A DNA stretch of 64,000 nucleotides from Thermodesulfobacteriota bacterium (GCA_963675595.2 CAXXLZ010000002.1:1216001-1280000), one strand, 5' to 3'; numbered from the stretch's first letter, positions 2,315 through 42,077 are shown. Made by a program: numbers and translations. The notes: generated by a model not told the origin, from the sequence alone.

Positions 2315-2363
2315 AAAAAAAAGGACAGCCGGGCTGCTGCAGAATGCGGCAACCCGGCTGTCC
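2315..2363 (-). terminator. Intrinsic terminator (expression platform of the c-di-GMP-I riboswitch)
   Basis: Minus strand GGACAGCCGGGTTGC-CGCATTCTGCA-GCAGCCCGGCTGTCC followed by T8; the 5' arm is the 3' strand of the aptamer. Confidence 0.85.
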
Positions 2364-2470
2364 GGAGTCGAACCTGAAGCGTTTCCGGGAACACGCTTCC
2401 GTCCGAACGTCTTTAGGACCCGTGGCTTTCCGACCCCCGGTTTCCCGGGGTGTGGCTTTCTCTCAAGTCG
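2345..2470 (-). ncRNA. c-di-GMP-I (GEMM-I) riboswitch with extended P3
   Basis: AAGCCACACCCCGG-GAAA-CCGGGGGTCGGAAAGCCACGGGTCC...GGACAGCCGGGTTGCCG matches the GEMM-I consensus (GNRA tetraloop, GGAAAGCC junction, AGCCGGGTTGCC 3' strand). Confidence 0.85.
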
Positions 2471-3074: not shown

Positions 3075-3902
3075 TTATCCCGCCTTTTGATTCCGGGATC
3101 CGAGCAGCTTCCTTTCCGCTTTCATATAGTAGGAAGGCGCCACCCCCATGAGTCTCTTGAATATTCGAGTGAAATACGAGACGTTGTTGAAACCCACCGC
3201 GAAGCAGGCCTCCGATACGTTCATCTTTTGTTCCAGCATGAGAAGCTTCGCCGCCTCGATCCTCCTTTTGTTCAGATACTCACTGAAGGTAAGGGAAGTT
3301 TCCGATTTGAACACACGGGAAAAATGATACTTACTCATGCCGTTGGCCTTCGCCACCTGTTCCAACGTGATGGGTTGCATATAGTTCTGTTCGAGGTACA
3401 GAATGGATTTCTCCAGGTTGCGGGGAATCTTCCAATGTTCCCTGCGCAGGGAGACGATTCGATTCGATGGGTTGGACCCCATGCCGCGGAAGACGTGTTT
3501 GATATGGCCGAAGGCCAGCCGGTAAAAAAAATCTCGGAGTTTCTCGTGATGTTGAAGCATCACCAGGAAATCCTCGCTCTCTTGAACGTAGCAGGTCACC
3601 GGCTCCAGGCACAACAGGAGTTTGATGGACGGGCTTTCGGAAAGCACCTCCACCAGACCGAACCAATCTCCACGGCGTATCGTGCCGCATAACGTGCTGC
3701 TCTGGCAGGGGACCTCCCAATGAGCCGACCCGGATGCCAACACCCCGATCTGTTTCACCTTCTCTCCGTTTCGAAGCAGCGTGGACCCGGTGGGAAACAA
3801 CACGGGGCGCAAACCCAAAACCACCGATTTCACGGCCCCCTCGTTCAGATCGTTCAAGGGGCACAGCTCGTTCATTTCGGTTTCGACCTCAGCCCGGCAC
3901 AT
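3075..3902 (-). CDS. Transcriptional regulator: cNMP-binding-like N-terminal domain plus AraC HTH
   Basis: FPTGSTLLRNGE...IGVLASG...GDWFG cNMP-fold pattern; C-terminal ITLEQVAKANGMSKYHFSRVFK...VGFNNVSYFTRIFKRLMGVAPSYY; ATG at 3902 follows GAGG (alternative GTG at 3911). Confidence 0.9.
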   Translation of the reverse strand: MCRAEVETEMNELCPLNDLNEGAVKSVVLGLRPVLFPTGSTLLRNGEKVKQIGVLASGSAHWEVPCQSSTLCGTIRRGDWFGLVEVLSESPSIKLLLCLEPVTCYVQESEDFLVMLQHHEKLRDFFYRLAFGHIKHVFRGMGSNPSNRIVSLRREHWKIPRNLEKSILYLEQNYMQPITLEQVAKANGMSKYHFSRVFKSETSLTFSEYLNKRRIEAAKLLMLEQKMNVSEACFAVGFNNVSYFTRIFKRLMGVAPSYYMKAERKLLGSRNQKAG

Positions 3903-4117
3903 CTTAGACACCTCTTTCGTTCCAAAAAAAAGATCTCACCTCGGACAACCAAGGCAAGACCTGGAACTCGCCGGTGAAGGACAGGATACACGGGGGCCCG
4001 ACGTCGCGCTTAGGGCAACGACCTCATGACCGGGACCCGGCGCTTGCGCCCGGTCCGGCCCGCTCGATCCTTCTCGGCATTCCACCATGCCTTGATTCCC
4101 GAGGGCATACAGTGGAG

Positions 4118-4285
4118 ATCATCTCGGCAGGTCTCCTGGCTTGTGGTTCGTCCTACTCGCCGCACCTTCCCGGACCGAAACGTCCAGTGGTGAATAGCGG
4201 CTTTCGTCCCCACACACAGTGGCGATCCCGCAGCGGCTTCCGCCCCGCTTTCCCTATTATGCCCTTACCGGGCGCCTGAGATGAT
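4118..4285 (-). ncRNA. Cobalamin (B12) riboswitch
   Basis: Minus strand AATAGGGAAAGCGGGGCGGAAGCCGCTGCGGGATCGCCACTGT...CCACTGG..CCGGGAAGG...AAGCCAGGAGACCTGCC (B12 box); P1 ATCATCTC/GAGATGAT. Confidence 0.93.
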
Positions 4286-4318
4286 AACGGATGTCATTAT
4301 GCTACTAGGTACACTTCT

Positions 4319-4358: not shown

Positions 4359-4405
4359 CTCTGCTCTCAGCTCTCAGCTCTCTGCTCTCTGCTCTCTGCT
4401 CTCAG
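4359..4405. repeat. Heptamer tandem repeat (CTCTCWG)x6
   Basis: ctctg ctctcag ctctcag ctctctg ctctctg ctctctg ctctcag. Confidence 0.9.
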
Positions 4406-7143
4406 GAAATATCGTCAAACATCAATTCCACGGTCGTCTCAACCGTCCCGAAGTTGGGAATCCGTGTTTCCACGGTTCCGCTGCCGGCATCAACGGCACT
4501 CAAATCAAATGTGTAGTCTCTACCGTGCAGGTCGTTGGATACGGATATCCCGTCGGTGTAGTCCGGGTCCAGGAACACGGTATACCCTCCGTCTCCCATG
4601 GTCGCCACCACCACACAGGAACCCGCGGAGTACTTCTGCAAATACAGGCTGAAAACCCCGTCGGCGCTTTTCCAGATCCCGTTTCGAGGATAAGTATCCT
4701 CGAAATCCACATCCGCGAACCTGAGTTCCACGGTCTTGATCACCTCGTCGAACCCCGGCAGAGAAGCCGTCACCGTGGCGCCGGTCGCGTCCGCGGCCGC
4801 CAGGCTCAGGCTGAATCCCTTGCCGTCGATATCCTGCCCCACGTTGATTCCGTCCCTGTAATCCGTATCCAGAAACACCGTGTACGCACCGTCGCCCATG
4901 GTGGCGATGACGATGCACGAGTTCGTGTCGTATTTCTGAAGATAGAGGCTGAGCACGTCGTCGGCGCTCTTCCAGATCCCGTTGGAGGGATACACGGCGG
5001 CGGAAGAGGTTACGGTAATATGGTCCGTAAAGGTTTTGGTCACGGTTCCATAGACGTTGGTCGCCGTCAGGGTCACCGTGTACTTGCCCGGCTGTGAGTA
5101 TACATGCACCGGATTCTGCTCCGCACCGGTGCCTCCGTCGCCGAAAATCCATGTCCAGGACGTGGGCCCGTTGGTGGATTCGTCGTCAAAGGTCACCGTA
5201 AGAGGCGCCGGACCGCTGGTGGGCGTGGCTGAGAACCCGGGAACGGGCGGTTGCTCGGAATCGATCACCGTGATGTAGTCCGTGCGAACCTTGAAGTCGC
5301 TTCCGCCGTCATTGGAAACGGTCAACTGCACGGAATAGGTTCCCGGTTCGGTATAGGTATGAGACGGGGCCTGGTAGTCGGCCGTTTCTCCATCGCCGAA
5401 ATCCCAACTCCACTGAGTGGGGTCGTCGGTGGATTCGTCTTTGAACATCACCTCCAAGGGCGCCTTGCCGCTGGTGGGAGCGGCGCTGAAAGCGCAGGTC
5501 GGAGCCGTGGTCGTCCCCCCGCCGTCGGTCACGGTAATGTAGTTCTGCCTCGTTTTCTCATCGGTTCCCGCACTGTTGGTAACCTCGAGGCCAACCGTGT
5601 ACGTGCCGGGAGTCGTATATTTGTGCGTGGGATTTTGGCTCCCGCTCTGGGAACCGTCTCCGAAATTCCACACCCAACCGGTTGGAACGCCCGTGGAGGC
5701 GTCCGTGAACGTCACCGAAAGAGGCGCCGATCCGTTCAAGGGCGCGGCCGTGAAGTCGCTCACCGGAGTGACCGGAGTAGCCGCTTCCGTTACCGTGATG
5801 TAGCCCGTTCGCGTCTTGCTGTCGGAATCGCCGCCGTTGGACACCGTCAACGTGACGGAGTAGGTCCCGGGATATTCGAAAGTATGAGGGGCATTCTGTG
5901 TGATGGCAGAGGGTGAATCGCTGAAATCCCACTGCCATTCCGTGGGCGATCCGTCGGATAGATCGGTGAAATGAACGGTCAAGGGAGCCGTACCGGTCGT
6001 GGGGTCCCCGGAAAAGTCGCACACCAGGTTTTCCACGGCCCCCGTTACGGTAATGTAGCCCACCTTGGTTTCGGTATCGTTCCCCCATTGATTCTTCGCA
6101 TAAAGTGATACCGTATATACCCCGGGCATTGAATAGACGTGAGATGGATTTTCCTGTCTTATGATCTTCCCATCCCCCAGATCCCATTTCCAACTGGTGG
6201 GGTCGTTTGAGGATTGGCTGGTGAATTGTACGGTGAGGGGCGCGGCGCCCGTGGTGGGGGTCGCTGAAAAAGCGGCCACAGGCGGATTGCCCTCCACCGT
6301 GATGAGCGCTTCCCTGGTTTTGCTGTGGCTGCCGAAGGCGTTGGTCACCGTAAGCACCACGGTGTACACCCCGTCGTTCTGATACACGTGCGCCGGATCG
6401 GACTGGGTGCTTGTGGACCCGTCTCCGAAATCCCAATCCCACTGGGTGGGGTCCCCCTCGGACAGGTCCGTGAAGGACACGGTCAACGGTTTTTCACCGC
6501 TGGTGGGCGCGGCCGAAAAGTCCGCCGAGGGAATCGCCTCCGTACCGTAATAGTCCGGTCCCCCGTCCCCCAGAAGCACGGTCTTGGAGGCGTCGGTATA
6601 CATATCCAGTTCGGAAGGACCGCCGGCTACAAGAAAGTCCCACCCGTCCTGCTCAATGAATTCGATCCACACATCCTCCCCGTTGGCAAGGCCTCCGTCA
6701 TATTGGAAGGTGGCCGTGAACAGAAGAAAATCCTCTCCTTCACTTATGTCTTGATGCGGCCCATAGCCGAGCAAACTCCATTTTCCGATATGCCGTATGG
6801 CGCCGGCGTCGGCCTCCGGATATTTCCGAGACCCCTTTTGCTCATACCAGGCATTAGGGTCGAAAGGATAATAAAGCATTTCCGTTGGGCCATAGGTCAG
6901 ATACTCAAATGTCAACTCGTCACCGTCCGCCTGAGTATCATCAAACCCCAGAGTAAGGCCCCAGGCGTGCAACTCGTCGTCGTGTTCCGCGTGGAGGTAC
7001 ACTTTCGCCTCGAAGGTTTCTCCGTTTTCGAGGGGCCCCCGGGAACCCACGGGCTGCATCCAGAGGAAGTGAGCAAAACCGGGAACAACGGACAGGAACC
7101 CGAACATCACTAGGACCACAAATCCGAGCGTCAACCTTCGCAT
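4402..7143 (-). CDS. Secreted protein: cohesin-like N-domain, six PKD domains, two C-terminal ~100-aa repeats
   Basis: Start MRRLTLGF after AGGAGAG; signal peptide; six F.A.PT.G.APL.V.F....WxWxFGDG-type units; two YP.NGIWKSAD repeats. Confidence 0.9.
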   Translation of the reverse strand: MRRLTLGFVVLVMFGFLSVVPGFAHFLWMQPVGSRGPLENGETFEAKVYLHAEHDDELHAWGLTLGFDDTQADGDELTFEYLTYGPTEMLYYPFDPNAWYEQKGSRKYPEADAGAIRHIGKWSLLGYGPHQDISEGEDFLLFTATFQYDGGLANGEDVWIEFIEQDGWDFLVAGGPSELDMYTDASKTVLLGDGGPDYYGTEAIPSADFSAAPTSGEKPLTVSFTDLSEGDPTQWDWDFGDGSTSTQSDPAHVYQNDGVYTVVLTVTNAFGSHSKTREALITVEGNPPVAAFSATPTTGAAPLTVQFTSQSSNDPTSWKWDLGDGKIIRQENPSHVYSMPGVYTVSLYAKNQWGNDTETKVGYITVTGAVENLVCDFSGDPTTGTAPLTVHFTDLSDGSPTEWQWDFSDSPSAITQNAPHTFEYPGTYSVTLTVSNGGDSDSKTRTGYITVTEAATPVTPVSDFTAAPLNGSAPLSVTFTDASTGVPTGWVWNFGDGSQSGSQNPTHKYTTPGTYTVGLEVTNSAGTDEKTRQNYITVTDGGGTTTAPTCAFSAAPTSGKAPLEVMFKDESTDDPTQWSWDFGDGETADYQAPSHTYTEPGTYSVQLTVSNDGGSDFKVRTDYITVIDSEQPPVPGFSATPTSGPAPLTVTFDDESTNGPTSWTWIFGDGGTGAEQNPVHVYSQPGKYTVTLTATNVYGTVTKTFTDHITVTSSAAVYPSNGIWKSADDVLSLYLQKYDTNSCIVIATMGDGAYTVFLDTDYRDGINVGQDIDGKGFSLSLAAADATGATVTASLPGFDEVIKTVELRFADVDFEDTYPRNGIWKSADGVFSLYLQKYSAGSCVVVATMGDGGYTVFLDPDYTDGISVSNDLHGRDYTFDLSAVDAGSGTVETRIPNFGTVETTVELMFDDIS

Positions 7144-7219
7144 TCGTTCTCTCCTGAAATCGGAGTTAGGGATTCGGAGCATGGTGTACAAATACGTAAC
7201 CTGCTTTACCTTGCTGAAC

Positions 7220-7282
7220 ATTATGGATGAAAAATTCGGCCCATTCTTGTCCGTTATTGCTCAAAATCAGCATTATCTTGCT
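7220..7282 (-). promoter_or_regulatory. Tandem AraC-type boxes plus -10 (promoter B)
   Basis: Minus strand AGCAAGATAATGCTGA-TTTTG-AGCAATAACGGACAAG-N20-CATAAT. Confidence 0.7.
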
Positions 7283-7411
7283 GTCTCGCCTTTATGCCCC
7301 GATTCTCGAAACGGATTCCATGCGTCCCATTCGGCCGTTCAACTGTGGGGAATATATATAAGGGATCCTCCGGACGGAAACCGATCCGGACCTCGCAAAA
7401 AAAAGCATGAC

Positions 7412-7474
7412 GGCAAGGAAGTCCATATTTTCCGCAATATAAGTCCAGCATCCTTCCCAAAGACCGGATATACC
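7412..7474 (+). promoter_or_regulatory. Tandem AraC-type boxes plus -10 (promoter C)
   Basis: GGCAAGGAAGTCCATA-TTTTC-CGCAATATAAGTCCAG-N20-TATACC. Confidence 0.65.
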
Positions 7475-7507
7475 TCTCTCCAATAGTACGCGTCCGACGC
7501 ACTTCCA

Positions 7508-7585
7508 CTTTCGAAAAAGCCACACCCGTCGTGAGGCGGGGCCGGAAAACTTCGGGTCTCCAGAGAGACGGCCGGGTTGCCGAAA
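7508..7585 (+). ncRNA. c-di-GMP-I (GEMM-I) riboswitch
   Basis: AAGCCACACCCGTC-GTGA-GGCGGGGCCGGAAAACTTCGGGTCTC-CAGA-GAGACGGCCGGGTTGCCG. Confidence 0.85.
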
Positions 7586-7607
7586 GGCAGCCCGGCTTTT
7601 GTTTTTT
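7570..7607 (+). terminator. Intrinsic terminator overlapping the aptamer 3' strand
   Basis: GCCGGGTTGCC-GAAA-GGCAGCCCGGC followed by TTTTGTTTTTT. Confidence 0.85.
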
Positions 7608-7775
7608 CCGGGCCCATGCGCGGGGGACGTTTGGAATGGAAACCCGAACCCGAAACCCAACCCCCAAAGCCCGCCTCGGTACGGGACGGCCGGCGGGTCG
7701 GCAAGACCCACGGTTTCACTCCGGAGTTCAAATCGAAACCGGAGGCAAGAACCCATCGGAACAAGGAGAAAGATC

Positions 7776-9275
7776 ATGACAAGGAAACACGCACGAAACC
7801 TTTTCATCCTGCTCGCCGCCTGCCTGTGGTTGTCGGCTTTTCCCACCACCGGGGCGGCCCAGGACTGGGCCACGTACGGTCTGCCGGCCAATGCGGTGCC
7901 GTTTGATCTACCCACGGTGCAGGGCACCGGAGCCGGCCCCAGTTGGTTCACCGCCGCGGACTTCTTCCCCGCGGCCTCCACGGGCACCATAGACGGGGGC
8001 ACCAACGTGGGCGTCCTGGACCTCAAGGGCCGAATCATCGCGGCCACCGGGGATCAAATCCTGCTGCAGCGCAACTACGGGTCCAGCAAGTTCGACGTGG
8101 TGGCCACCGTGCCCGGGATCATGGACCCCGCCTTTATTCACGTCTCCCCAAGCGGCACCAAGATCGCATTAGGCGCGGGTTACGGAGCGCCATTGGTCAT
8201 CATCGACCCTTCGGTCCTGAGCATCCAGAACCCGCCCCTGCTCTGGACCGGGTCCACCCCCATCAACGGCGTGACCTTGTTCCCCGAGGTGAACTTCTAT
8301 GACGCGGATTGGGTCGACGATCAGTTTATCGTAGTCAACGGAGGCCAGTATCCCTTCGGGGATCCACCGCAGTACGCCAGCGGAGCCGGCGTGGTGGACA
8401 CCGACGACCCCGACCCGCTCAATCACGAAGGTACGCGCATCATCGACAGCATACCCGGGGCCTCCGGCGACGTGGAGGTGGACCAGTACGGCAACCTGTA
8501 CACGGGCATCGGGTACGGATCCTCATCCACCACGGGGCAGATCAAGGTTTGGGACGCATCCGAGTGGGACCCCACGGACCCGATTCCCATGGCGTACACC
8601 GCCAACACCAAGGTGTTGTTTGCCGGCAACGGCCTGCTCAGCGCGGCCCAGATGGGCACGGACCGAGACGGCAACCTGCATTTGGGCGGCGGCAACTACT
8701 TTGGTTCACCCCCGGACTACGGGTACGCGGCCCTCATCAACGTGAACGTCACCAACCGGGTGTTGTTGGGCGGAGCCGCGGCGGACCCTCTGAACACCAG
8801 CGAGTTTCAGGAGTTCCAACCCGATCCCTGCCGGAACGATTCGGCCACGGACGTCATGTACAGCGACTGGGGCGTGGGCCTCGCCGTGTACTGGAACCCC
8901 CTCACCCTGCCTCCCAGCTGCGCCTCCGGGGATGAGTGGCATCCAGGAGTCATCCCCCGGGTGAACATCTATCATCCCGCCGGTGCGCCCGACGATGACG
9001 CCGACGGGGTTCCCAACGTGTCGGACAACGCCTATCAGACTCCCAATGCGGGTACGGGACAGCAGGGCGCCGACGCGGATGGGGATGGATGGGCCAACAT
9101 AGCGGATGCCGATTTCGACAACAGCGGAAGCGTGGGCATTCCCGATTCGAACTATTTCCGCAACCACATCGGTACGTCGGACCCGGACGCGGACCTGGAC
9201 AGCAACGGAACTGTGGGTGTTCCCGACTCGGGGATATTTCGAGGTTTGATCGGCAAAAACGCACCATACTATTAA
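7776..9275 (+). CDS. Secreted protein with a beta-rich (propeller-like) body, TSP3-like Ca-binding repeats and a C-terminal dockerin-like module
   Basis: ATG after AAGGAGA; signal peptide; DDDADGVPNVSDN and DADGDGWANIAD; duplicated ADFDNSGSVGIPD...F and ADLDSNGTVGVPD...F loop-helix motifs. Confidence 0.85.
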   Translation: MTRKHARNLFILLAACLWLSAFPTTGAAQDWATYGLPANAVPFDLPTVQGTGAGPSWFTAADFFPAASTGTIDGGTNVGVLDLKGRIIAATGDQILLQRNYGSSKFDVVATVPGIMDPAFIHVSPSGTKIALGAGYGAPLVIIDPSVLSIQNPPLLWTGSTPINGVTLFPEVNFYDADWVDDQFIVVNGGQYPFGDPPQYASGAGVVDTDDPDPLNHEGTRIIDSIPGASGDVEVDQYGNLYTGIGYGSSSTTGQIKVWDASEWDPTDPIPMAYTANTKVLFAGNGLLSAAQMGTDRDGNLHLGGGNYFGSPPDYGYAALINVNVTNRVLLGGAAADPLNTSEFQEFQPDPCRNDSATDVMYSDWGVGLAVYWNPLTLPPSCASGDEWHPGVIPRVNIYHPAGAPDDDADGVPNVSDNAYQTPNAGTGQQGADADGDGWANIADADFDNSGSVGIPDSNYFRNHIGTSDPDADLDSNGTVGVPDSGIFRGLIGKNAPYY

Positions 9276-9403
9276 GACGCGAAATTCCAGGATCAGCGGA
9301 CAAGACTAATCAGCTATGTGCGTCGAAGGAGTTCAGTCCCTTGCTGTGCGAACGAATGAAAGGTTCTTGAGCCGTCCAAACCCACTACTTAGGAGGATAC
9401 TTC

Positions 9404-10087
9404 GTGAAAAAGACAACATCTCTACTGACCTTTATGCTCTTCGTGGCGTTTTTTACCTGCACTCCCGTGTCGGCCCACTTCTTGTGGATGGATCCTATCG
9501 GCATCCAGGGGGCCAACGTCGGGGACCAAGTGAGCGTTTCCGTGTACCTCCACGCCGAGCAGGATGATGAACTACACGGATGGAGTGTTTCATTAGGCTT
9601 CGACGACACGTTGGTCGACGGCGGTGAACTGACCTTTCTGAGTCTTACTTACGGCGCTACCGACATGCTTTTCTCTCCCTACGACCCGAATGCCTACTAC
9701 GAAGAGGGGGCTTCTCAAAAGTATTCCGTGGAAAGCGCTATTCGGAGGATATCTAAATGGAGCCTGCTCGGATATGGCCCACATCAAGATATATCCGAAG
9801 GAGATGACTTTCTTCTCTTCACGGCCACCTTCCAGTTCAACGGGGGGGACTTCGACGGGGAAGACGTTTGGATTGAGCAGTTCCCGGAAGAGGGATGGGA
9901 TTTCGAGAATGCCGGCGCTCTTCTATCACTGGACATCTACACGGACAACACCAAGTCCCTCTTGCTGGGGGACGGGGGCCCGGATTACGGCTCCAATGTG
10001 CCCCTGCCCGCGGCCGCTTACCTGATGGGCTCGGGTCTGGTGGCTCTGGTGGGAATCAGAAGAAAAAGAAGGAAAGCGGCCCTGTAG
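9404..10087 (+). CDS. Cohesin-like domain protein with VPLPA-type PEP-CTERM anchor
   Basis: AGGAGG RBS; signal peptide; VGDQVSVSVYL...LHGWSVSLGFDD...LTF...LLFTATF; VPLPAAAYLMGSGLVALVGIRRKRRK; paralogous to the N-domain of 4402-7143. Confidence 0.88.
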   Translation: MKKTTSLLTFMLFVAFFTCTPVSAHFLWMDPIGIQGANVGDQVSVSVYLHAEQDDELHGWSVSLGFDDTLVDGGELTFLSLTYGATDMLFSPYDPNAYYEEGASQKYSVESAIRRISKWSLLGYGPHQDISEGDDFLLFTATFQFNGGDFDGEDVWIEQFPEEGWDFENAGALLSLDIYTDNTKSLLLGDGGPDYGSNVPLPAAAYLMGSGLVALVGIRRKRRKAAL

Positions 10088-10407: not shown

Positions 10408-10965
10408 ATGAAAAAACTCTGGATGATCGCCGTCTCTTTTCTCGTAATCGTGGTCGTGGTTGTCATGCTGACCTGGGATGCGGACCATCGCCGCGCGTCC
10501 GATAAGGAAAACGGCCCGGACATGTCCGCGGTTTCCGAGGAGGTTTCGATCCCCGAAAGCACGCAAACGAACCGGGACGATTCCGCCCCGGCCGAAGACA
10601 CTCCCTCGCTCCCTCCATCCGATTCCACGGTCACGGCACAAAAGCCCAAGCCCAAGTCGTACGAGTTCGACGAGGCGGAGTGGGAATACGCCGTAAACAA
10701 GGAGTTCGAGGCGGCGGCGTTGGAGATTTTTCCCGTGTATACCGTTCAGACGCATGATCCCAGGCATCCGGAGGAATTCGGTCCCAAGGAAGGCGAAATA
10801 TGGGTTCGCATCAAACCCGAGGCCGCCCTGACGTATCAGGACGTCATGGCCGAGACCGCCGAATTGTATCGGGAGCTGACCTATCGTCAGGGGCCCGTGA
10901 CGGTGATGCACTGGGTGGGCAATCGGCCGTACGCCAAGCTCTCGTTTTCCGGTGAATACGAGTGA
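10408..10965 (+). CDS. Hypothetical membrane-anchored protein
   Basis: GAGG RBS, N-terminal TM helix, low-complexity linker, globular C-domain. Confidence 0.75.
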   Translation: MKKLWMIAVSFLVIVVVVVMLTWDADHRRASDKENGPDMSAVSEEVSIPESTQTNRDDSAPAEDTPSLPPSDSTVTAQKPKPKSYEFDEAEWEYAVNKEFEAAALEIFPVYTVQTHDPRHPEEFGPKEGEIWVRIKPEAALTYQDVMAETAELYRELTYRQGPVTVMHWVGNRPYAKLSFSGEYE

Positions 10966-11156
10966 TGCACCGCGGATCACTCGTCTCATCACCGCCCGGA
11001 TCACCGGCCGAGAAATCTCTATCGAGGCCTTTGATCCTCGGTAGACCGGAAGGCGTCAAGACAAGACCCCGAGAACCCGATGTTCCCGCGGGTTCCTCCT
11101 TTCCAAGTCACAAAGAGGATTCGGGTGTACCCACTGAACTTAAAGGATGCCAACTC

Positions 11157-12227
11157 ATGCTGAAGCAAACCTTTCGCATTCTCGTGATTCTCTCGGTGTT
11201 CTGCGGCACCGTGTGGAACTCCCCCCTCCATGCTGAGGACAATGGCGCCGGAACGCCTGTCATGGTGTTCGACGAGGCGGCCGGCGACCCTCCGACCGTG
11301 GTTCGAGGAGAAATCGCCACGCATGTGTTCACCTTTTCCAACAAAGGCTCGGCGCCGCTGATCCTGTCGGACGTATCTCCGGGCTGCCGTTGCACCGAAA
11401 CGGCCTACGACAAAACGGTCCTCCCCGGCCGCAAGGGAAGGATCACCCTTACCATGGACACCGAGGGCTTCACCGGCCGTACCGGTCTGGACGCCGTGGT
11501 GACTTCCAACGACCCCGAAACTCCAAGCCGGAAGATCGAGGTCGCGGTCATGGTTCTCCCTCTCATCGACCTGCAACCCGACCGCGTGATCCTCTCCGGT
11601 CCGGCGGGTAAGGTTCTTGAGAAAACGCTCGTGATTCGCAGCAACATCCAAGACCCCCTCCAACTGGGGATCGACGAGGAAACCGTTCCTCCTGAAATTA
11701 CCTGTGTTCTCAGTCCGAAGGAACCCGGCAAATCGTATCTCTTGACCGTTCGGAACAAGAACGAGACACCGAACGTGTATCGCAGGACCTTTCAGATCAA
11801 GACCAATTACGCGCGCCGGCCCACCCTCAAAGTGCCCGTTTTCGGGCGCATCCTATCCGAAGTGGAAGTGACGCCCAAGTCGGTCGACTTCGGTCAAATT
11901 CGCAGGAAACGCTATGCCGCCTTGATGAAGAACCCGGATGAAGATCCCGGCCCGGCCGAGCTGTCCTCACTGAGGGAAGAACTCGCGAAGGACGTTTTCG
12001 TACGAGGGAATCTCGACCAACCATTCGAAATCGAGAGGGTGGAAATCGACCAAACCCTTTTTCATACGGAAGTCAAATCCCTGGAGCTCGGAAAGCACTA
12101 CTGGATTCGCATCACACCCTTGCCGGCGCGATTGAAATCCGGGCTTACGGAAACCCGACTGAAAATCCACACCAATCATCCTCGGTTTTCCACCATGGTT
12201 GTGCCGTTGCGAGTCATGGCGAACTAG
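11157..12227 (+). CDS. DUF1573-like Ig-fold secreted protein
   Basis: Signal peptide; HVFTFSNKGSAPLILSDVSPGCRCT...VLPG motif; repeated Ig-like units. Confidence 0.8.
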   Translation: MLKQTFRILVILSVFCGTVWNSPLHAEDNGAGTPVMVFDEAAGDPPTVVRGEIATHVFTFSNKGSAPLILSDVSPGCRCTETAYDKTVLPGRKGRITLTMDTEGFTGRTGLDAVVTSNDPETPSRKIEVAVMVLPLIDLQPDRVILSGPAGKVLEKTLVIRSNIQDPLQLGIDEETVPPEITCVLSPKEPGKSYLLTVRNKNETPNVYRRTFQIKTNYARRPTLKVPVFGRILSEVEVTPKSVDFGQIRRKRYAALMKNPDEDPGPAELSSLREELAKDVFVRGNLDQPFEIERVEIDQTLFHTEVKSLELGKHYWIRITPLPARLKSGLTETRLKIHTNHPRFSTMVVPLRVMAN

Positions 12228-12482: not shown

Positions 12483-12650
12483 ATGAAATTCCTCAAAAGA
12501 CTTTGGGAAGACGAATCCGGCGTAACCGCCATTGAGTACGCCTTGATCGCCTCCCTGGTGGCGATTGCGGCCATAGCGGCGCTTACCAATCTCGGTGACG
12601 CGATTACCGACAAATTCGAGAAGATTATTGAAAGCCTTCAGGGGGCGTAG
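12483..12650 (+). CDS. flp: Flp family type IVb/c pilin
   Basis: Below the ORF-track cutoff; MKFLKRLWEDESG/VTAIEYALIASLVAIAAIAALTNLG...; AGGAGG RBS; G|xxxxEY motif. Confidence 0.95.
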   Translation: MKFLKRLWEDESGVTAIEYALIASLVAIAAIAALTNLGDAITDKFEKIIESLQGA

Positions 12651-12911
12651 TCGCCGCAGTGTCGGTCTATCACGGGGATATTCCCAAACACCCCCTCGCC
12701 CCTTTTCAGAGCCAACCCCAAAAGCACCCCCTCGGGGCGATGAGCACAGGGCGGGAATGCATGTTGGTTCTCGAAACGCCCCATCGAGACTGCGCCAAGG
12801 CCCATGCCTTTCGGCCGGAGGGAGGTGCCCCCGCCTGAGAAGTGTGGAAGGGATCGAAGAATCTCCCACTCAGAGGGATTCCATGATGGCCCGAACGGAT
12901 GAATTCCGAAT

Positions 12912-13325
12912 ATGACAGCTCATCAATCCAAGTGCAGGTCGAGGAAAAGACAAAAAGGGGTTTCCTGCATCGAGTTCGCCATGGTGCTTCCCGTCTTGCT
13001 CCTCATTCTTTTCGCCATCATGGAGTACGGGTGGCTGATGGTGCATCAGATCGTTCTGATCAACGCCGTATCCACGGGCGCACGAGCGGCCATCAGGGCC
13101 AACCCCGAGGAACTCGCCCCATACACGGCGAAAGACTACACCGTGAAGGCGTTCTGGATCGGAACGCTGACCCGGGATCAGGTGCTGGCGGAGATGCCGG
13201 CCGATAATCCCAAACGGGTTTACGTGTCCGTACCCGCTTGGGACTACGAACCGATCACGCACTTCCTCCCATCGGCGCTCCTTCCAAAATCCCTGAACGC
13301 CGCGTCGGTCATGGTGTTTCCGTGA
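12912..13325 (+). CDS. tadE: TadE-like pseudopilin
   Basis: QKGVSCIEFAMVLPVLLLILFAIMEYG...AVSTGARAA. Confidence 0.9.
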   Translation: MTAHQSKCRSRKRQKGVSCIEFAMVLPVLLLILFAIMEYGWLMVHQIVLINAVSTGARAAIRANPEELAPYTAKDYTVKAFWIGTLTRDQVLAEMPADNPKRVYVSVPAWDYEPITHFLPSALLPKSLNAASVMVFP

Positions 13326-14635
13326 GTCCCCAAGGCAAGAACACATCATTGGTGAAAACGAGGGGCGTCGTCATCCTGGCCCTGGGCCTTGTTTTCGCAA
13401 TACTCGCCTACAAAGCGGTTTCACGCCTCGTCGAGAAACCTGAGTCGCCTCCGGTTCGGGCGGTGATGGCCGTGGAGTCCACGGCCGCGGGCGAACCCCT
13501 GTTTCGAAGGAAGCTCGAAGTCGTGACCCGCCCTGCCGGGGAACTCCCCGCCGGCACGTTCTCCAAAACGGAACAGGTGGCTGGGAGAATCGCGGCACGT
13601 CCCATTGAAAAGGGAACTTTCGTCACCAACGATCATCTCGTTACGGAGACCACCCTTTCACAGCAAAGCATTTCCCGACGCCTCAGCCCCGGCCGGAGAG
13701 CCTACGCATTAAAAGTGGATGAAGCTTCCGGAATATCGGGTGAACTCGTTCCCGGAGACCTGGTGGACATCATCGCCACAAGCGCCTTGTCCGGCGCCCT
13801 CGAGAGTCGGGTATCGCGCGTGGTGCTCCGGAAAATTACGGTGCTGTCCGTGCGACAGGAAAAGAAGGGAGGACTCTTTCCGGGCGGCCCGGACAAGACC
13901 GGCCGCGTGACTGCGGTCACACTGGCCGTGAACCCGGACGAGGCGAACGTACTGGCCGCATCCGAGGGAGCCGGCCTCCGCCTGGTCGCCCGTTCCCGAG
14001 CCGGGGGCGAAGGAAGCGACGAAGAATTCGTCTACTCTCCCTTAACCGGACCCAAGACCGTTTCCGAGCTGCATCGGCTGTGGCAAGAGCGGGACCTCGC
14101 GCTCAACCGGCGTATTCCTCATGGCATGCGCGCCGTTACCGTCCAAGTATCCGTCGCGGACGGCATATGCGGCCGACTGGCCTCCGGTAACAAAGTGGAT
14201 GTCATCGCCGTGACTCAGACCGGAGACCTTTCCACCGAAGGAGACGGACCTGGAGCCATGGCCACACAACTGGCAACGGCCCGGATGGCCAAGACGATTT
14301 TTCAGAACGTGGAACTCATGGCCGTGGAGGACGAGCTTGAAGGCTTGCCCGGAGCTCCGGAGGGCGATGAGCGTCTCGTGGCCCTTCTCCTCTCGCCTCG
14401 GCAGGCGGAAGGTCTCATCTCCGTGTCGCAGGACCCCGCCTACAAACTTAAAATTGTGCGGAGGAACCCTGCCGACACCGAGATCGCCGACACGCAGGGA
14501 GAAAAGATCAGGGAACTCTTCTTTGAACCCGGCGAATTGGTCTATCAAGTGGAAGTACACCGAAGAGGCGGAGTGGAGATCGAAAATTTCAAGGACCCGC
14601 GGGTTCAACAAAGTGCGCACTCCTCGGTGCGCTAG
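13322..14635 (+). CDS. cpaB: Flp pilus assembly protein CpaB/RcpC with SAF and two RcpC domains
   Basis: GTG overlapping the tadE stop; TM, SAF, PGRRAYAL..SGELVPGDLVDII and second GMRAVTV..GRLASGNKVDVI. Confidence 0.85.
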   Translation: MSPQGKNTSLVKTRGVVILALGLVFAILAYKAVSRLVEKPESPPVRAVMAVESTAAGEPLFRRKLEVVTRPAGELPAGTFSKTEQVAGRIAARPIEKGTFVTNDHLVTETTLSQQSISRRLSPGRRAYALKVDEASGISGELVPGDLVDIIATSALSGALESRVSRVVLRKITVLSVRQEKKGGLFPGGPDKTGRVTAVTLAVNPDEANVLAASEGAGLRLVARSRAGGEGSDEEFVYSPLTGPKTVSELHRLWQERDLALNRRIPHGMRAVTVQVSVADGICGRLASGNKVDVIAVTQTGDLSTEGDGPGAMATQLATARMAKTIFQNVELMAVEDELEGLPGAPEGDERLVALLLSPRQAEGLISVSQDPAYKLKIVRRNPADTEIADTQGEKIRELFFEPGELVYQVEVHRRGGVEIENFKDPRVQQSAHSSVR

Positions 14636-14748
14636 TAAGCGGAGGCTGCATGATACACCCCGAACCCGTCTCCCTGTACCGAAATGAGCCCGCCCATCAT
14701 CTCATGACGTCCCGTAACCGGCCTTTTTCAACGGACTAAGGTGCGCAT

Positions 14749-16128
14749 TTGATCTCCAAACGGAACATCCTCGTATTCTTCGTCCCGGCTGCGTTGTTGG
14801 CTTTCCTGATTGCGGGATTGGTGTCTTCGCGCCTCCACAAGCCCGCCGTCGAGAAGACACGGGTCGTGGTGGCCAAGGCGCCTCTCCTCAGAGGACAAGT
14901 TCTGACGCCTGAGAAGCTCGAGTTGATCGAATGGCCCGACCCAAGCCCCCCGGACGGATACTTTGGAAACGTGGAAACCCTTACCGGAAGAATTGCGGCC
15001 GACTCCATCAGCGCGAAAGACCCGATCCTGGAATCCGTTCTCATCCATACAAAGCCCGAATCCGAGTGGGGCCTCTCCGAGAAAATCCCCGAGGGGTACA
15101 TGGCCTTCACCTTGGCTGTGGACGAAGTGTCCGGCCTGCCCGGAAGCATCGTTCCGGGGGATGTGGTCGACGTGATCGCCACGAATCCGCTTCCGAACGA
15201 CAAGAGTCAACGAATCGCCAGGTTGCTCCTCCAAAAGGTCCGGGTCTATTCGGTTTCCGGTCACAGAGACGGCAGGATCAGGGCCGTGACTCTCATCGTG
15301 CGGCCAAGTGAGGCCAACATCTTGTCGGCGTCCGACGGCGCCACGCTCAGGCTGGTCGCTCGAAGCCGGGAGACGGATAGAAAAAAATCGAGTGACGATG
15401 TGGTGTTCTCCTCCGGAGTCGGAGCCCATACCCCCGCGGACATCGGCTCCCTCAAAAAGGAGAGGGATCGAATTTACCAGGAAAGCATTCGCGAGGGGCT
15501 TCGGGCCCTAACCATTTCCGTAAACGGCCTGGACGGTATCTGCGGTTTCTTGAAACAGGGAAACCGGGTGGACGTTGTGGGAGTTCATTCTTTCGTCTCA
15601 ACCACGCCCTATCAAGGCACGGACGCACCGGGACAAAAGGTCGTCATCGCGGGGGAGCCGACCTACGCCAAGATATTGCTTCAAGACATGGAAGTGCTCG
15701 CCGTGGCCGATGATGCGGAAACATCCGACAGGGTCGAGGACGTGGCGGCCAAACATCTTGAGTCGGCTAAACCCGGGGCAAACGGCTGCGAGGGCCCGGA
15801 TTGTCTCGACGCCGCAGGGGATCGGGAGAAGGCCTCCCCCGCGGGCGACGGCTCCGCCTCAAGGTCCGCCAAACGGGTAACCCTCCTCGCCGACCCGGCA
15901 CAAGCCGAACAACTGGCCCTCCTTTCGGATTCCTCGTCGTCCAGGCTCACCGCCGGGAATTCCGGAATAAGACTCATCATTAGGAATTATAACGACCGGG
16001 AAATCGTAAAAACCCGCGGGGGATCCAGCAAAGAGACGGTCTACGGCGTTGAGGAGGAACGCTACCGCTACGTAACGGTATTCAGGGGCGCCGCCAAATC
16101 AACACGGCAGTTTCCCATTGCCGACTGA
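14749..16128 (+). CDS. cpaB: Second CpaB/RcpC with SAF and two RcpC domains
   Basis: VVVAKAPLLRG SAF; EGYMAFTL..PGDVVDVI and EGLRALTI..GFLKQGNRVDVV. Confidence 0.85.
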   Translation: MISKRNILVFFVPAALLAFLIAGLVSSRLHKPAVEKTRVVVAKAPLLRGQVLTPEKLELIEWPDPSPPDGYFGNVETLTGRIAADSISAKDPILESVLIHTKPESEWGLSEKIPEGYMAFTLAVDEVSGLPGSIVPGDVVDVIATNPLPNDKSQRIARLLLQKVRVYSVSGHRDGRIRAVTLIVRPSEANILSASDGATLRLVARSRETDRKKSSDDVVFSSGVGAHTPADIGSLKKERDRIYQESIREGLRALTISVNGLDGICGFLKQGNRVDVVGVHSFVSTTPYQGTDAPGQKVVIAGEPTYAKILLQDMEVLAVADDAETSDRVEDVAAKHLESAKPGANGCEGPDCLDAAGDREKASPAGDGSASRSAKRVTLLADPAQAEQLALLSDSSSSRLTAGNSGIRLIIRNYNDREIVKTRGGSSKETVYGVEEERYRYVTVFRGAAKSTRQFPIAD

Positions 16129-16270
16129 GGTGCTTCCAGCGGATCGGAGTACCACGGGCAATGAGGTTCCCTAAGGTCGAGCAATGGGTTTGCGGCTGAA
16201 ACGCAAGAGGAAAGGCTTCCACGGAAATGAGGGCCGTGACGCTCGTCACGGTCAGGCGGACAGGAAAGCT

Positions 16271-16663
16271 ATGAACATCATGATTCGGATCAGACTAGGT
16301 GCGGCGATTCTACTTCTCACGGCGGGGCTCGGGTATTCTCCGGTCCACAGCGAAACACCCGTCGGAAACTTCAGCCAAGGGAACATCCACGAAGTGGTCG
16401 TACCTCGCTTCGGAGCCCACTTGATCCAGACCCGACAACCGGTGAAGCGGGTCTCGGTGGCGGAACCGACCATCGCGGATGTGAAGGTCATCAGTCCCTT
16501 CGATCTGCTCATAGAAGGGCGAGGACAGGGGATCACCACGTGCGTCGTCTGGTACAAGACCGAGGGGGGAGAAATCTACCGGGTGAAGGTGAATCGAGGG
16601 GCCGAAGTGGAGACCCTGTTGGGAACGGAGCTCTCTCAGGATAAGTCGTTATGGGGATGGTAA
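16271..16663 (+). CDS. Stand-alone pilus-formation (secretin N-terminal) domain protein
   Basis: Signal peptide; PVKRVSVAEPTIADV...LLIEGRGQGITTCVVW. Confidence 0.8.
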   Translation: MNIMIRIRLGAAILLLTAGLGYSPVHSETPVGNFSQGNIHEVVVPRFGAHLIQTRQPVKRVSVAEPTIADVKVISPFDLLIEGRGQGITTCVVWYKTEGGEIYRVKVNRGAEVETLLGTELSQDKSLWGW

Positions 16664-18120
16664 TCGGAATGATGAAGGATCGTCGAGTCAAGTGTGCGCT
16701 GTTCCTGGTCTTGTGCTTTTGCATCACGGGATTCTCACCTCGAGTGTCGGCGGACGAGAAACTGGTGCCTTCCCGAAAACTCCGGCTGAGCCTGGGCACG
16801 TCTTTTGTTCTTGAGGTCGAGAGGAAGACCAAAAGAATCAGTGTGGGCGATCCCGAAATCATGGACATCAGAGCCATCACCCCGAAACAGATATTGTTGA
16901 ACGCGAAAGCGTTGGGGTCCACGAATCTCATCGTTTGGTTCCTCAACGGCGGCACCCGCGTGTATGCCCTGGAGGTCACGCTCGATCATGATGAGATTCT
17001 GAGTAATCTGAAAAAACTGGCGCCCGACGCGGACATTTCATTGTACACATTGAACCAGGAACTGGTCGTGAGCGGTTTCGTGGACGATCAGGATACCTTG
17101 GATCGGCTTCTCACCGTACTAGGCGCCTACACGCCTCTTACTTCCGGCAAGCTGCGAAATCTCATCAAGCTCAGGGGACCGCAACAGGTGCAGTTGGAGG
17201 CGAGAATCGCGGAAGTCTCCACCAGCGGCATCAAACGGCTGGGGCTCGGATTTCTTTTGGACAGGAGCGTGTTCGGCGAACACATGAATCTGGGCCTGTT
17301 CACATCCGGGACGACAAGCGGAACCATGTCCGGAGTCTCTTCCGGCGGTGAATCGGCGTCCGCCCTTTCGCACACGTCCGAGCTCTACTCACCCTTTGCC
17401 GATGCGTTCATGCTTGCTTTGGGATTGCCGGACCAAGGCATTTTCTCCATCCTGAACATCCTGAAAAGCCAGGGGCTCGCGCGCATTTTGGCCAGGCCCA
17501 CCTTGGTGGCCATGAGCGGGCAGCCGGCGAGCTTTCTCGTGGGAGGTGAATTCCCCGTGCCGGTGACGCAGTCCGGCGGGGGCGACGCCATAACCACCGA
17601 TTTCAAGGAATTCGGTGTACTGCTCAATTTCATCCCCACGGTCATCGGTAAGGAGACCATCAGCTTACAGGTCTCCACCAGTGTGAGCGACATCGACTTC
17701 TCCACGGCGGTATCCACTTCCGGAGTCTCCGTACCCGGAGTCGTGCAAAGAGGAGCGAACACTTCCGTACAACTTAAGGACGGACAGACTCTTGCCATTG
17801 CCGGTCTCTTGAGGGAAAACCTGTCTTCTTCCCACTCCAAGTTCCCCTTTCTCGGCGATATTCCTCTGTTGGGCACGCTGTTCAGTCAAAAAGAGTACCG
17901 AAAGGAAGAGACGGAACTCATCATCCTGGTGACGCCACGTTTGGTGAAGCCGCTGAACCCGGAAGATTTGCCCGCGGAACCTGAAGGGATGGGGCAACCC
18001 TATCCGAGCGATCTTGAATTCTTTCTCCTGGGAAAAGTCGACGGCACCCATTTTCATGCCCACGGCGCGGCCGACCGAGAAGAGCCCGGTTTTGCCGGAC
18101 CGGTGGGGTTCGTCAGATGA
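16651..18120 (+). CDS. cpaC: Tad secretin CpaC/RcpA
   Basis: RISVGDPEIMD N-domain, BON-like region, QVQLEARIAEV, ILARPTLVAMSGQPASFLVGGEFP, PFLGDIPLLGTLF..ETELIILVTP; start may be at 16669. Confidence 0.95.
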   Translation: MGMVIGMMKDRRVKCALFLVLCFCITGFSPRVSADEKLVPSRKLRLSLGTSFVLEVERKTKRISVGDPEIMDIRAITPKQILLNAKALGSTNLIVWFLNGGTRVYALEVTLDHDEILSNLKKLAPDADISLYTLNQELVVSGFVDDQDTLDRLLTVLGAYTPLTSGKLRNLIKLRGPQQVQLEARIAEVSTSGIKRLGLGFLLDRSVFGEHMNLGLFTSGTTSGTMSGVSSGGESASALSHTSELYSPFADAFMLALGLPDQGIFSILNILKSQGLARILARPTLVAMSGQPASFLVGGEFPVPVTQSGGGDAITTDFKEFGVLLNFIPTVIGKETISLQVSTSVSDIDFSTAVSTSGVSVPGVVQRGANTSVQLKDGQTLAIAGLLRENLSSSHSKFPFLGDIPLLGTLFSQKEYRKEETELIILVTPRLVKPLNPEDLPAEPEGMGQPYPSDLEFFLLGKVDGTHFHAHGAADREEPGFAGPVGFVR

Positions 18121-18150
18121 TTCCTAACGGATTTCCCCAAAGCGAGGACG

Positions 18151-19389
18151 ATGATGCCTGAGAAGTTGCGGGGTCTGCTGGTCAGCGACAGAACCGCCCT
18201 TGCGGCGGATATGCGGGACGAGATTGCCTCCAGAGTCAACCTGGAAGTGATCTTTACATCGTCCAATGCGGCTTATCCTCTGATCAAGGAAAAGGCGCCC
18301 AAGCTCCTTTTCATTGATGCGGTCCGGAATCCCGAGTCGGCCATGAGCCTCGCCGCACGAGTAAGACGGTTCCTCCCAGGCACTCTGGTGTTCGCCCTGT
18401 GCGAATCCAGGGATCCGGACCTCATCCTGCGCTTCCTGCGCGCCGGCGTCAGCGACTACCTCGCCTATCCGCCGGAGGCCTCGCACGTACTCATCTCCAT
18501 AGACACGGCCCTTGACGCGGAACGACGCAAACGAAGAGAGGGAGAAGTTCTCGCGGTGTTCAGCTGCAAAGGCGGACAGGGTGTGACGACCACGGCGGTG
18601 AATCTCGCCGATCATGTTCGGACCCTGACCGACGCCAAGGTCCTCCTCGTGGACTTCAATTTCCGATCCGGCGACGTGGGGCTGCAACTGGGCGGGCATA
18701 CTACATACGGTTTCACACGATTTATCCACGACATCGACAGACTGGACGAGAATCTTCTCTTCTCTTCCACGGAGCTACATCCCAACGGATTCTACCTCAT
18801 GTCCGCGAAACCGGATATGCGAGCCGAGGACGGAATCGCTCTGGAGCAGATCAGCCAGGGGTTTCACATATTGAAGGAGTTTATGGACTTTACCATCGTG
18901 GATCTGGGCAGCGACTTCAACGAGAGAACCGCAACCGTGTTGGATGTGGCGGATCGAATCCTTTTGGTGGCCCAACAATCCGTGCCCGCCGTGCGCGGCA
19001 TCGGCCGCGTGCTGTCGCTTTTCAGAGAAGCGGGATACGGCGACGAAAAAGTGAAGATCGTGATCAATCGGTTCGAAGGAAACCACATCGTGGGTCTTAA
19101 GGAAATCGAACGGGCCCTGCAGCGGAACGTCTGCGCAACGGTGGCCAACGATTACGCGGCGGTGTCGGATGCCGTGACCCAAGGGGACCTCCTCACCAAA
19201 GCCCATGACTCTTCTCGCGCGAACGCGGACCTGCGCCTCCTCGCGAGGACGCTCACCGGCATCCCGGAGAACGGCCACCGCCCCGACTCCAAATGGAAAC
19301 GGTTGCTCAAACGTTTTCCGTCTTCTCTGGGCATCCCCGCACGAACCCGCAAAGAGCCGCAGCCTGAAACGCATGAGGACGCATCATGA
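18151..19389 (+). CDS. cpaE: CpaE/TadZ pilus localisation ATPase (receiver-like + MinD)
   Basis: VFSCKGGQGVTTTAVNLA deviant Walker A; receiver-like N-terminus. Confidence 0.9.
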   Translation: MMPEKLRGLLVSDRTALAADMRDEIASRVNLEVIFTSSNAAYPLIKEKAPKLLFIDAVRNPESAMSLAARVRRFLPGTLVFALCESRDPDLILRFLRAGVSDYLAYPPEASHVLISIDTALDAERRKRREGEVLAVFSCKGGQGVTTTAVNLADHVRTLTDAKVLLVDFNFRSGDVGLQLGGHTTYGFTRFIHDIDRLDENLLFSSTELHPNGFYLMSAKPDMRAEDGIALEQISQGFHILKEFMDFTIVDLGSDFNERTATVLDVADRILLVAQQSVPAVRGIGRVLSLFREAGYGDEKVKIVINRFEGNHIVGLKEIERALQRNVCATVANDYAAVSDAVTQGDLLTKAHDSSRANADLRLLARTLTGIPENGHRPDSKWKRLLKRFPSSLGIPARTRKEPQPETHEDAS

Positions 19390-20744: not shown

Positions 20745-20747
20745 AGC

Positions 20748-21707: not shown

Positions 21708-21710
21708 CCA

Positions 21711-23449: not shown

Positions 23450-23519
23450 ACCCGGCAGGCCTTTTCCGGCGGACTGAACCAGGGGTTCCGGCATCCCCTG
23501 CCCTGAGTCGGATACGGTA

Positions 23520-40427: not shown

Positions 40428-40696
40428 GACCAGACGCAACACGTCCTTTCGCCTTCTTCCGCATACAGCTTTCCATACAAGGATGCGTTCCCGAGGCTCT
40501 CTACAGGCACTTGAATCGGCGCCCCGGGTCGTCGAACTCCTTGAACACCCGAAAATAGAAAATGTCGGAGGCGGACGATGAGTCTTGAAAGCTTGAGCTT
40601 ATTCCTTTCCTATCTGCGGAGCGCGGATTCGAATCCTGTGGGGCATGCTTACTAAATCAACAGGTTAGGATTTTGAATTTTGCCGTCTTTGCCATC

Positions 40697-41869: not shown

Positions 41870-42077
41870 GTCTCTACGGATTCCTTATGTAAATTTTTTT
41901 CGTTAAATTCTGCTAAGAAAAAGATAACCCGGTATTTTTTCCTTAGCAAGTTTTCGTTTCACGTTCCGGAAGGGAAAACAAGGCGGCTGAGCGTTTTTTG
42001 TGCAAAATCGCGGAACCCGGTTGATGAGGGCGAAACCGTATGCGGGCAGGCAGCCGGCGGGACGACATCCGTTCCTT

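Follow-up and report, generated by a model that had tools for sequence, protein, structure and literature searches.

In the cellulosomes of clostridia and ruminococci, one gene encodes an anchor and another encodes the cargo, and the two are brought together on a plug-and-socket principle by a cohesin, which is a beta-sandwich, and a dockerin, which is a duplicated EF-hand loop-helix. Modules of both kinds are also present outside cellulosomes in all domains of life, according to the available parts of two papers (PMC5244752 and PMC9012536, citing Peer et al. 2009), and in the available part of a third, cohesin/dockerin proteins of syntrophic sulfate-reducing bacteria are listed as putative adhesins (PMC10553843). 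Cohesin-dockerin adhesins in sulfate reducers have been reported already. Here we describe a locus with modules of these two kinds in a stretch of 64,000 nucleotides from a Thermodesulfobacteriota bacterium (GCA_963675595.2, CAXXLZ010000002.1:1216001-1280000; the whole stretch is called the window below, and positions are counted from its first letter). Three genes are in question (Table 1). P0003 encodes a short protein with one cohesin-like module and an exosortase sorting signal, P0002 encodes a secreted propeller protein with a dockerin-like tail, and P0001, on the other strand, carries a second cohesin-like module in front of six PKD domains. We give an even chance to the proposal that P0002 and P0003 bind each other as a non-cellulosomal cohesin-dockerin pair and display the propeller.

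The likeness to type I and II cellulosomal pairs (PDB 1ohz, 2y3n, 5nrm and 6kgf) lies in the modules and in the division of labor. The P0003 module is likewise a beta-sandwich that matches cohesins, the P0002 tail is likewise a duplicated EF-hand loop-helix, and here too one gene provides the anchor and another the cargo. The differences are that the host is a diderm and that the anchor bears an exosortase signal (PEP-CTERM/VPLPA-CTERM) instead of SLH domains or a sortase signal. Moreover, the cargo is a propeller and not an enzyme, the dockerin is preceded by thrombospondin type 3 (TSP3) repeats without a flexible linker, both modules fall under the Pfam thresholds, the genes are under riboswitch control, and the window has no multi-cohesin scaffoldin. 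In the non-cellulosomal systems of syntrophic sulfate reducers and anaerobic methanotrophic (ANME) archaea, the available text of the reports places the modules in organisms that do not degrade cellulose, as here, and proposes a role in adhesion or cell-cell contact, as we do. Among the relatives of P0002 are proteins with source names of Desulfosarcina, Desulfobacula, Syntrophobacteraceae and Sorangium.

As far as the available text goes, the non-cellulosomal proteins reported so far rest on domain annotation, whereas the P0003/P0002 subfamily evades the Pfam models by its own sequence. A PEP-CTERM anchor or a riboswitch is not mentioned in the parts of PMC10553843, PMC9012536 and PMC5244752 that were available. 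Full-text literature searches did not find cohesin-dockerin pairs tied to PEP-CTERM, and they found 'cohesin domain' together with exosortase for archaea only, not for bacteria. What is new here is the pairing of a propeller-TSP3-dockerin protein with a member of a sub-threshold cohesin subfamily that bears an exosortase signal, both behind a riboswitch of the GEMM-I clan.

The original prediction, made from the sequence of the window, had described one domain shared by P0003 and the head of P0001. The N-terminus of P0001 aligns with nearly the whole of P0003 at 56% identity over 209 amino acids (E 1e-75), and the motifs that had been quoted for the domain (HFLWM, VYLHAE.DDELH.W, KWSLLGYGPHQDISEG.DFLLFTATFQ, GEDVWIE and LLGDGGPDY) are all found in both modules. 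It had also seen a cohesin-like pattern in the domain and had named a Foldseek comparison as the check. The AlphaFold model of P0003, built on an alignment of its closest relatives (predicted local distance difference test, pLDDT, 80.3), gave 26 matches in the PDB at E <= 0.001. Of these 26 ranks, 23 rows were listed, and every one was a cohesin or a cohesin-dockerin complex (E 1.6e-5 to 9.6e-4, probability 1.0); the first listed rows of another kind, beta-sandwiches of the carbohydrate-binding module (CBM) type, stood at ranks 31 and 41. The model resembles the fold of solved cohesins, which is a nine-stranded jelly-roll beta-sandwich, with moderate template modelling (TM) scores.

A bridge of homology leads to the same superfamily. 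A family-profile search of 1.84 billion representatives returned 24 proteins at E <= 1e-30, and as wider relatives we picked, from 150 listed, the 50 full-length proteins that covered most of the profile. P0107, one of the 24 and 36% identical to P0003 over 219 amino acids (E 3e-34), passes the gathering score of the Pfam cohesin family PF00963 (30.9 vs 24.1 bits) and so links P0003 to this family indirectly. PF00963 is matched at E <= 0.01 by 9 of the 50 picked relatives, and their joint profile matches the solved cohesins 3l8q_A (1e-6), 2y3n_A (9e-4) and 5lxv_A and 1tyj_A (both near 1e-3). Of three long matches of the representative search that were checked, P0124 and P0196 are matches of the PEP-CTERM tail only and P0222 is unrelated. 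In the Atlas cluster nearest to P0003 (score 0.98), PEP-CTERM occurs in 94% and Cohesin in 61% of the members; the combination of the two is an architecture already present in databases. Because three independent lines, namely the fold, the homology bridge via P0107 and the language-model features, agree, we conclude that the shared domain is a divergent module of the cohesin superfamily.

P0002 was modelled with high confidence (pLDDT 90.2; predicted TM-score, pTM, 0.88). In the AlphaFold model, residues ~29-400 form a beta-propeller, for which Foldseek returned generic WD40-type propellers only (TM ~0.5, 10-13% identity), and therefore no specific function can be assigned to it. The end of the protein had been predicted to consist of two loop-helix repeats, and it does. 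The EF-hand loops span D446-D457 (DFDNSGSVGIPD) and D473-D484 (DLDSNGTVGVPD), judged by D or N at positions 1, 3, 5 and 12, G at 6 and I or V at 8, and they are followed in the model by helices at 455-462 and 482-491. This gives the two repeats of ~22 residues, calcium loop and then helix, of a dockerin. The C-terminal APYY is conserved.

At the level of the family, 41 of the 72 aligned members match the dockerin family PF00404 at E <= 0.01 (best 1.8e-9) and 26 of the 72 match TSP_3 (PF02412). The P0002 tail aligns column for column with the members that match PF00404, and several relatives bear the NCBI name 'dockerin type I domain-containing protein'. In the family profile, the TSP3 part matches COMP (E 7e-25) and thrombospondin-2 (1e-18), and the last 55 positions match the dockerins 2y3n_B (2.3e-7), CelS (2mte/1daq, ~1.7e-5) and CelA (1e-4). 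The prediction of a dockerin-like tail is supported through the family, which matches both PF00404 and solved dockerins; the P0002 sequence itself has no Pfam match. We consider it highly probable that the shared modules and the P0002 tail are homologues of cohesins and dockerins.

For the pairing of P0002 with P0003, the first line of evidence is that their genes recur together. Homologues of the two were found on contigs of the same size in four cases (51033, 11255, 11615 and 8820 bases). Since the sizes are identical, we take each to be a single contig, and the genes lie within ~10 kb of each other in three of the four cases. Hence the genes for the dockerin protein and the short cohesin protein, placed side by side by the original prediction, are linked on four other contigs as well. 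The linked P0003 homologues make up 4 of the 10 that are not P0003 itself; of the six unlinked ones, four lie on contigs of at most 1.6 kb, too short for both genes. The second line of evidence is P0098, a metagenome protein of 610 amino acids with two HFLWM-type cohesin modules, each 33% identical to P0003 and each followed by an unassigned domain of ~90 amino acids, and with a C-terminal dockerin that looks canonical (PF00404 E 4e-4, below the gathering score). Judged from its sequence, P0098 has the probable layout of a scaffoldin, more precisely of an adaptor scaffoldin.

P0098 also bears on a different explanation of the HFLWM domain, namely that it is no docking module at all but a metal-binding 'histidine brace', in which the first histidine of the mature protein and His50 hold copper or nickel. 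H25 is the first residue past the predicted signal-peptide cut, and neither this histidine nor H50 varies in any of the 12 close relatives. However, the second module of P0098 keeps SHFLW in mid-chain, and therefore there is no free amino terminus there, while in more distant full-length relatives the position of H25 is taken by Y, W, Q, S, A, D or P. In addition, Foldseek gives cohesins and not the folds of lytic polysaccharide monooxygenases (LPMO) or CopC. The mid-chain SHFLW of P0098 and the replacement of the histidine in distant relatives led us to reject the brace, which we regard as very unlikely.

Several results weigh against a dedicated cohesin-dockerin pair. On the side of the modules, P0002 has no match to PF00404 and P0003 and P0001 have none to PF00963, even at E <= 1 in each case; a profile of the 12 closest P0003 relatives (A1) has no match at E <= 10 among solved structures; and the Foldseek TM-scores of P0003 are moderate, at 0.31-0.64 by target and 0.27-0.44 by query. 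On the side of the partnership, the P0002 family is far wider (77 matches) than the close P0003 family (11), and most P0002 homologues have no close P0003 homologue on a contig of the same size. Those without a partner include an 8.26-Mb Desulfosarcina record and Sorangium records of 12-16 Mb, and one P0003 homologue lies on a 551-kb contig without a listed P0002 partner. With so many P0002 homologues lacking a partner, a close cohesin of the P0003 subtype is no obligate companion of P0002. In 25 other TSP3-dockerin loci, mostly of Gammaproteobacteria, a domain-only cohesin profile found nothing within flanks of up to 10 kb on either side, many of them shorter. No linker separates the P0002 tail from the propeller, and the two are modelled confidently as one packed body, whereas the dockerins of cellulosomal enzymes swing free. 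Finally, no exosortase family was found among the scanned open reading frames (ORFs) of the window.

The narrow P0003 family, the 25 loci without a P0003-type cohesin nearby and the packed tail can be read in another way, which we hold to be a serious possibility with somewhat less than an even chance. The modules would be true cohesin and dockerin homologues but no partners, and the two proteins would be neighbors only as co-regulated surface proteins. The TSP3-dockerin tail would then be an element for calcium-dependent folding, for stability or for attachment of the propeller protein to the matrix, and P0003, with its cohesin-like module and PEP-CTERM signal, would be a protein of the matrix or of adhesion in its own right. 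This would suit the available parts of PMC5244752 and PMC9012536, which call the function of non-cellulosomal modules unknown. However, the pair recurs on four contigs, P0098 fuses a P0003-type cohesin with a dockerin in one chain, P0002 and P0003 lie in one riboswitch-controlled unit, and the binding of dockerins is the best established function of cohesin folds. A complex prediction of P0003 25-198 with P0002 430-499 and two calcium ions (score 0.14, tool mark 0.32) weighs neither way.

The 25 loci came from a context scan with TSP3 and dockerin patterns and match the tail of P0002 only (~383-494), with no full-length P0002 homologue among them; because they match the tail alone, the scan is unable to measure the linkage of P0002 and P0003. 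Observations of another kind were made there. In loci L001-L024, from Gammaproteobacteria and other metagenome-assembled genomes, the TSP3 and dockerin tail sits on diverse secreted proteins, such as a matrixin-like protease, a C25 peptidase, a GDSL lipase or an MtrC-like multihaem cytochrome (for example L002:5513-6640, L010:7724-10294, L013:2-1996 and L001:6683-10267). These tails usually end in a short PGP[SG] motif and not in APYY, and in some loci there are two or even three proteins of this kind. Directly downstream of the dockerin protein in L002, L010 and L013 lies a PEP-CTERM protein without a known family; the three resemble P0003 in the tail only and have no Pfam Cohesin match.

The original prediction had called the assembly cellulosome-like and at the same time non-cellulolytic. 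A true cellulosome-like enzyme complex for the breakdown of polysaccharides would share the cohesin and dockerin module types with this locus, and these module types only. In P0001-P0003 and the scanned ORFs of at least 100 amino acids in the window, however, we found neither a glycoside hydrolase nor a CBM or any other domain active on carbohydrates; the propeller that forms the cargo has no match to an enzyme; and there are just two cohesin-like modules and a single dockerin module in the window, not a multi-cohesin scaffoldin with several dockerin-bearing carbohydrate-active enzymes. We therefore regard such a complex as extremely improbable. Because no carbohydrate-active enzymes were found, the term 'cellulosome-like' holds for the plug-and-socket principle only and not for a cellulolytic role.

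The sorting signal of P0003 had also been predicted, and its tail exceeds the NCBIfam cut-off of the VPLPA-CTERM model TIGR03370 (28.5 vs 25.35 bits), while the Pfam PEP-CTERM model stays below its own (12.8 vs 20.7). As in the PEP-CTERM families floc_PepA and XDP1 of NCBIfam, the tail has a VPxPA motif, a hydrophobic helix and an Arg/Lys cluster. The match to floc_PepA is by the tail alone and is weak (27.5 vs a cut-off of 80), and P0003 differs from these families by its cohesin-like passenger domain.

P0001 was claimed to be a PKD stalk that offers the same module at a second height above the cell. The six PKD stretches are there, as had been predicted, and P0001 ends in two tandem repeats. 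However, neither a PEP-CTERM signal nor a hydrophobic C-terminus was found in it, and the idea of two heights has no basis because P0001 lacks a recognizable anchor. The C-terminal repeats match no Pfam or NCBIfam family and score at most 0.85 in the Atlas, without a named lead; they may be an attachment element. The sole other long form fused to PKD domains that we found is P0094, on a 6.6-kb contig, and it keeps both C-terminal repeats. Since this form was seen just once elsewhere, the set of three genes is not a conserved unit.

The layout of the three genes agrees with the original prediction, and the agreement with its sequence observations as a whole is far beyond chance. P0001 and P0002 are transcribed divergently. 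We place the start of P0001 at M27, because the stored database copy has 913 amino acids; its signal peptide then ends ...PGFA|HFLWM. The ATG of P0002 is preceded by the ribosome-binding site AAGGAGA, and the GTG start of P0003 by a TAGGAGGA site. A longer P0002 ORF, started by TTG at 7599, was not considered credible because it reads through the leader RNA. Between P0002 and P0003 lie 128 nt, in which a terminator scan found no terminator-like site, and the two form a two-gene unit.

This unit is preceded by a riboswitch. The aptamer, 190 nt upstream of the start of P0002, matches the c-di-GMP-I-GGC model of Rfam (RF03167, clan CL00126) over its full length, 1-80 of 80, with 68.8 bits vs a gathering score of 59 (E 3.5e-14). 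A terminator-like hairpin (7570-7597), with a GC-rich stem of 12 bp, is followed by TTTTGTTTTTT. The final 16 nt of the aptamer serve as its 5' arm, and the hairpin is formed in the minimum-free-energy fold of 7505-7612 (-54.9 kcal/mol, z -4.2). Because of the shared arm, aptamer and terminator are mutually exclusive. The hairpin is the probable expression platform, and the binding of the ligand would then lead to read-through, making this a putative ON switch.

To our knowledge, the ligand of the GGC variant RF03167 has not been established. In GEMM-I (c-di-GMP-I) riboswitches of pili, adhesins and surface proteins we see the same features as here, a CL00126 aptamer in the leader of a surface protein with a terminator platform; the difference is that the best model here is the GGC variant. 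Literature searches did not find the control of a cohesin-dockerin operon by such a riboswitch, and the papers that name the variant are off-topic by their titles and abstracts. A second c-di-GMP-I-GGC riboswitch, at 2344-2465 (-) with 60.9 bits against the same gathering score of 59, precedes P0093 and P0092 (1125-2030 and 470-1090, both on the minus strand), which have PEP-CTERM/VPxPA tails and passenger domains without a family match. From its positions, this riboswitch class appears to control at least two operons of exosortase substrates within 8 kb.

If P0002 and P0003 are indeed partners, the locus might work as follows. A cyclic dinucleotide would bind the aptamer and block the terminator, so that both proteins would be made together. 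After its export, P0003 would be processed by an exosortase encoded outside the window and would be retained on the cell envelope or in the exopolysaccharide matrix. Loaded with calcium, the dockerin tail of P0002 would plug into the P0003 module, and possibly into that of P0001, and the propeller would be the displayed functional head, most likely a module for binding or adhesion. Such a unit may serve aggregation or biofilm formation, a role with which the neighboring Tad pilus locus and the window's diguanylate cyclases agree. It is possible, though rather doubtful, that the whole is a self-assembling adhesin triggered by a second messenger, in which P0001 provides the same socket in a soluble or matrix-bound form. 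In that case the P0001 socket would cross-link cells or keep partners together in aggregates, for example in syntrophic consortia.

Table 1. Features of the locus and its surroundings, in positions of the 64,000-nt window (aa, amino acids).
Feature	Position	Strand	Basis or remarks
P0001 as open reading frame	4402-7221	-	939 aa
P0001 as database copy	4402..7143	-	913 aa; start M27 = 7143; signal peptide, cohesin-like module, 6 PKD domains, two C-terminal ~96-aa repeats
Two tandem ~96-aa repeats of P0001 C-terminus	4405..4995	-	YPxNGIWKSADxVxSLYLQKY...CxVxATMGDGxYTVFLDxDY; local alignment score 302
Six PKD domains of P0001	4996..6525	-	PF18911 E 7e-108, PF00801 E 1e-79, 6 stretches each
Cohesin-like module of P0001, paralogue of P0003 module	6526..7071	-	56% identity; domain-only profile E 7e-80
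c-di-GMP-I-GGC (GEMM-I clan) riboswitch aptamer, 5' leader of P0002-P0003	7510..7585	+	Rfam RF03167
Intrinsic-terminator-like hairpin (12-bp stem, GAAA loop) and U tract	7570..7607	+	Terminator scan, sequence
P0002	7776..9275	+	Secreted protein, 499 aa; signal peptide, beta-propeller, TSP3 repeats, dockerin-like tail
Thrombospondin type 3 calcium-binding repeats	8976..9104	+	P0002 residues ~401-443; family profile, PF02412
Dockerin-like module	9105..9272	+	P0002 residues 444-499; two EF-hand loops with a helix after each; ends APYY
P0003	9404..10087	+	227 aa; signal peptide, one cohesin-like module, VPLPA-CTERM sorting signal
Cohesin-like module of P0003	9476..9997	+	Residues 25-198; AlphaFold model, Foldseek, relative P0107
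VPLPA-CTERM (PEP-CTERM class) exosortase sorting signal	9998..10072	+	P0003 residues 199-223; TIGR03370
DUF1573 protein	10962-12227		Between P0003 and Tad locus
Tad/Flp pilus locus, complete	12483-25037 (end approximate)	+	Downstream of P0003
Flp pilin	12483-12650	+	
TadE-like	12912-13325	+	
RcpC/CpaB, two paralogues	13238-14635, 14749-16128	+	

Beyond the genes listed in Table 1, the Tad locus contains a small pilus-N protein, a secretin, TadZ-like and TadA ATPases, TadB/TadC, a TPR protein and a TadG-like protein. The secretin and the pilus locus in the same window bear out the earlier view that the host is a diderm. Genes of metabolism in the window (an aldehyde:ferredoxin oxidoreductase, Hdr-like and Fe-S proteins and a sigma-54 activator) and the source names of relatives fit an anaerobic, Desulfobacterota-like diderm, and the host is probably similar to sulfate reducers. 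Further along, a HAF-repeat protein, two GGDEF diguanylate cyclases and a PEP-CTERM protein are encoded at 42526-43905 (+), 48297-49952 (-), 52139-52840 (-) and 53309-55441 (+); one of the two GGDEF proteins has a 7TMR-DISM sensor, and the PEP-CTERM protein has a weak XDP1-like match. Between the 3' end of P0001 and the gene of an AraC-family regulator lies a cobalamin riboswitch (4110-4294, minus strand; 103 bits, E 1e-24). The regulator, which has a cyclic-nucleotide-binding domain, is encoded at 3075-3911 (-), ~200 nt downstream of this riboswitch. A transcription factor behind a B12 riboswitch is unusual. The GC content, elsewhere 0.55-0.60, dips to 0.49 at 40001-42000, around a gene of the Fic/DOC family (40697-41869, minus strand), and this stretch may be an inserted segment.

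The available parts of PMC5244752 and PMC9012536 state the role of cohesins and dockerins outside cellulose degraders, where the modules are widespread, as unknown. The locus described here is compact enough to test that role, since it comprises a single plug and two sockets, of which one is anchored and the other belongs to the PKD protein. It also has a probable second-messenger switch upstream and a Tad pilus locus next to it. Because the cohesin-like PEP-CTERM subfamily lies under the Pfam threshold, domain-based censuses undercount such systems. If the locus does encode a self-assembling adhesin triggered by a second messenger, no earlier cohesin-dockerin system would combine an exosortase anchor with a defined regulatory input, and the non-cellulosomal modules would gain a role that can be tested.

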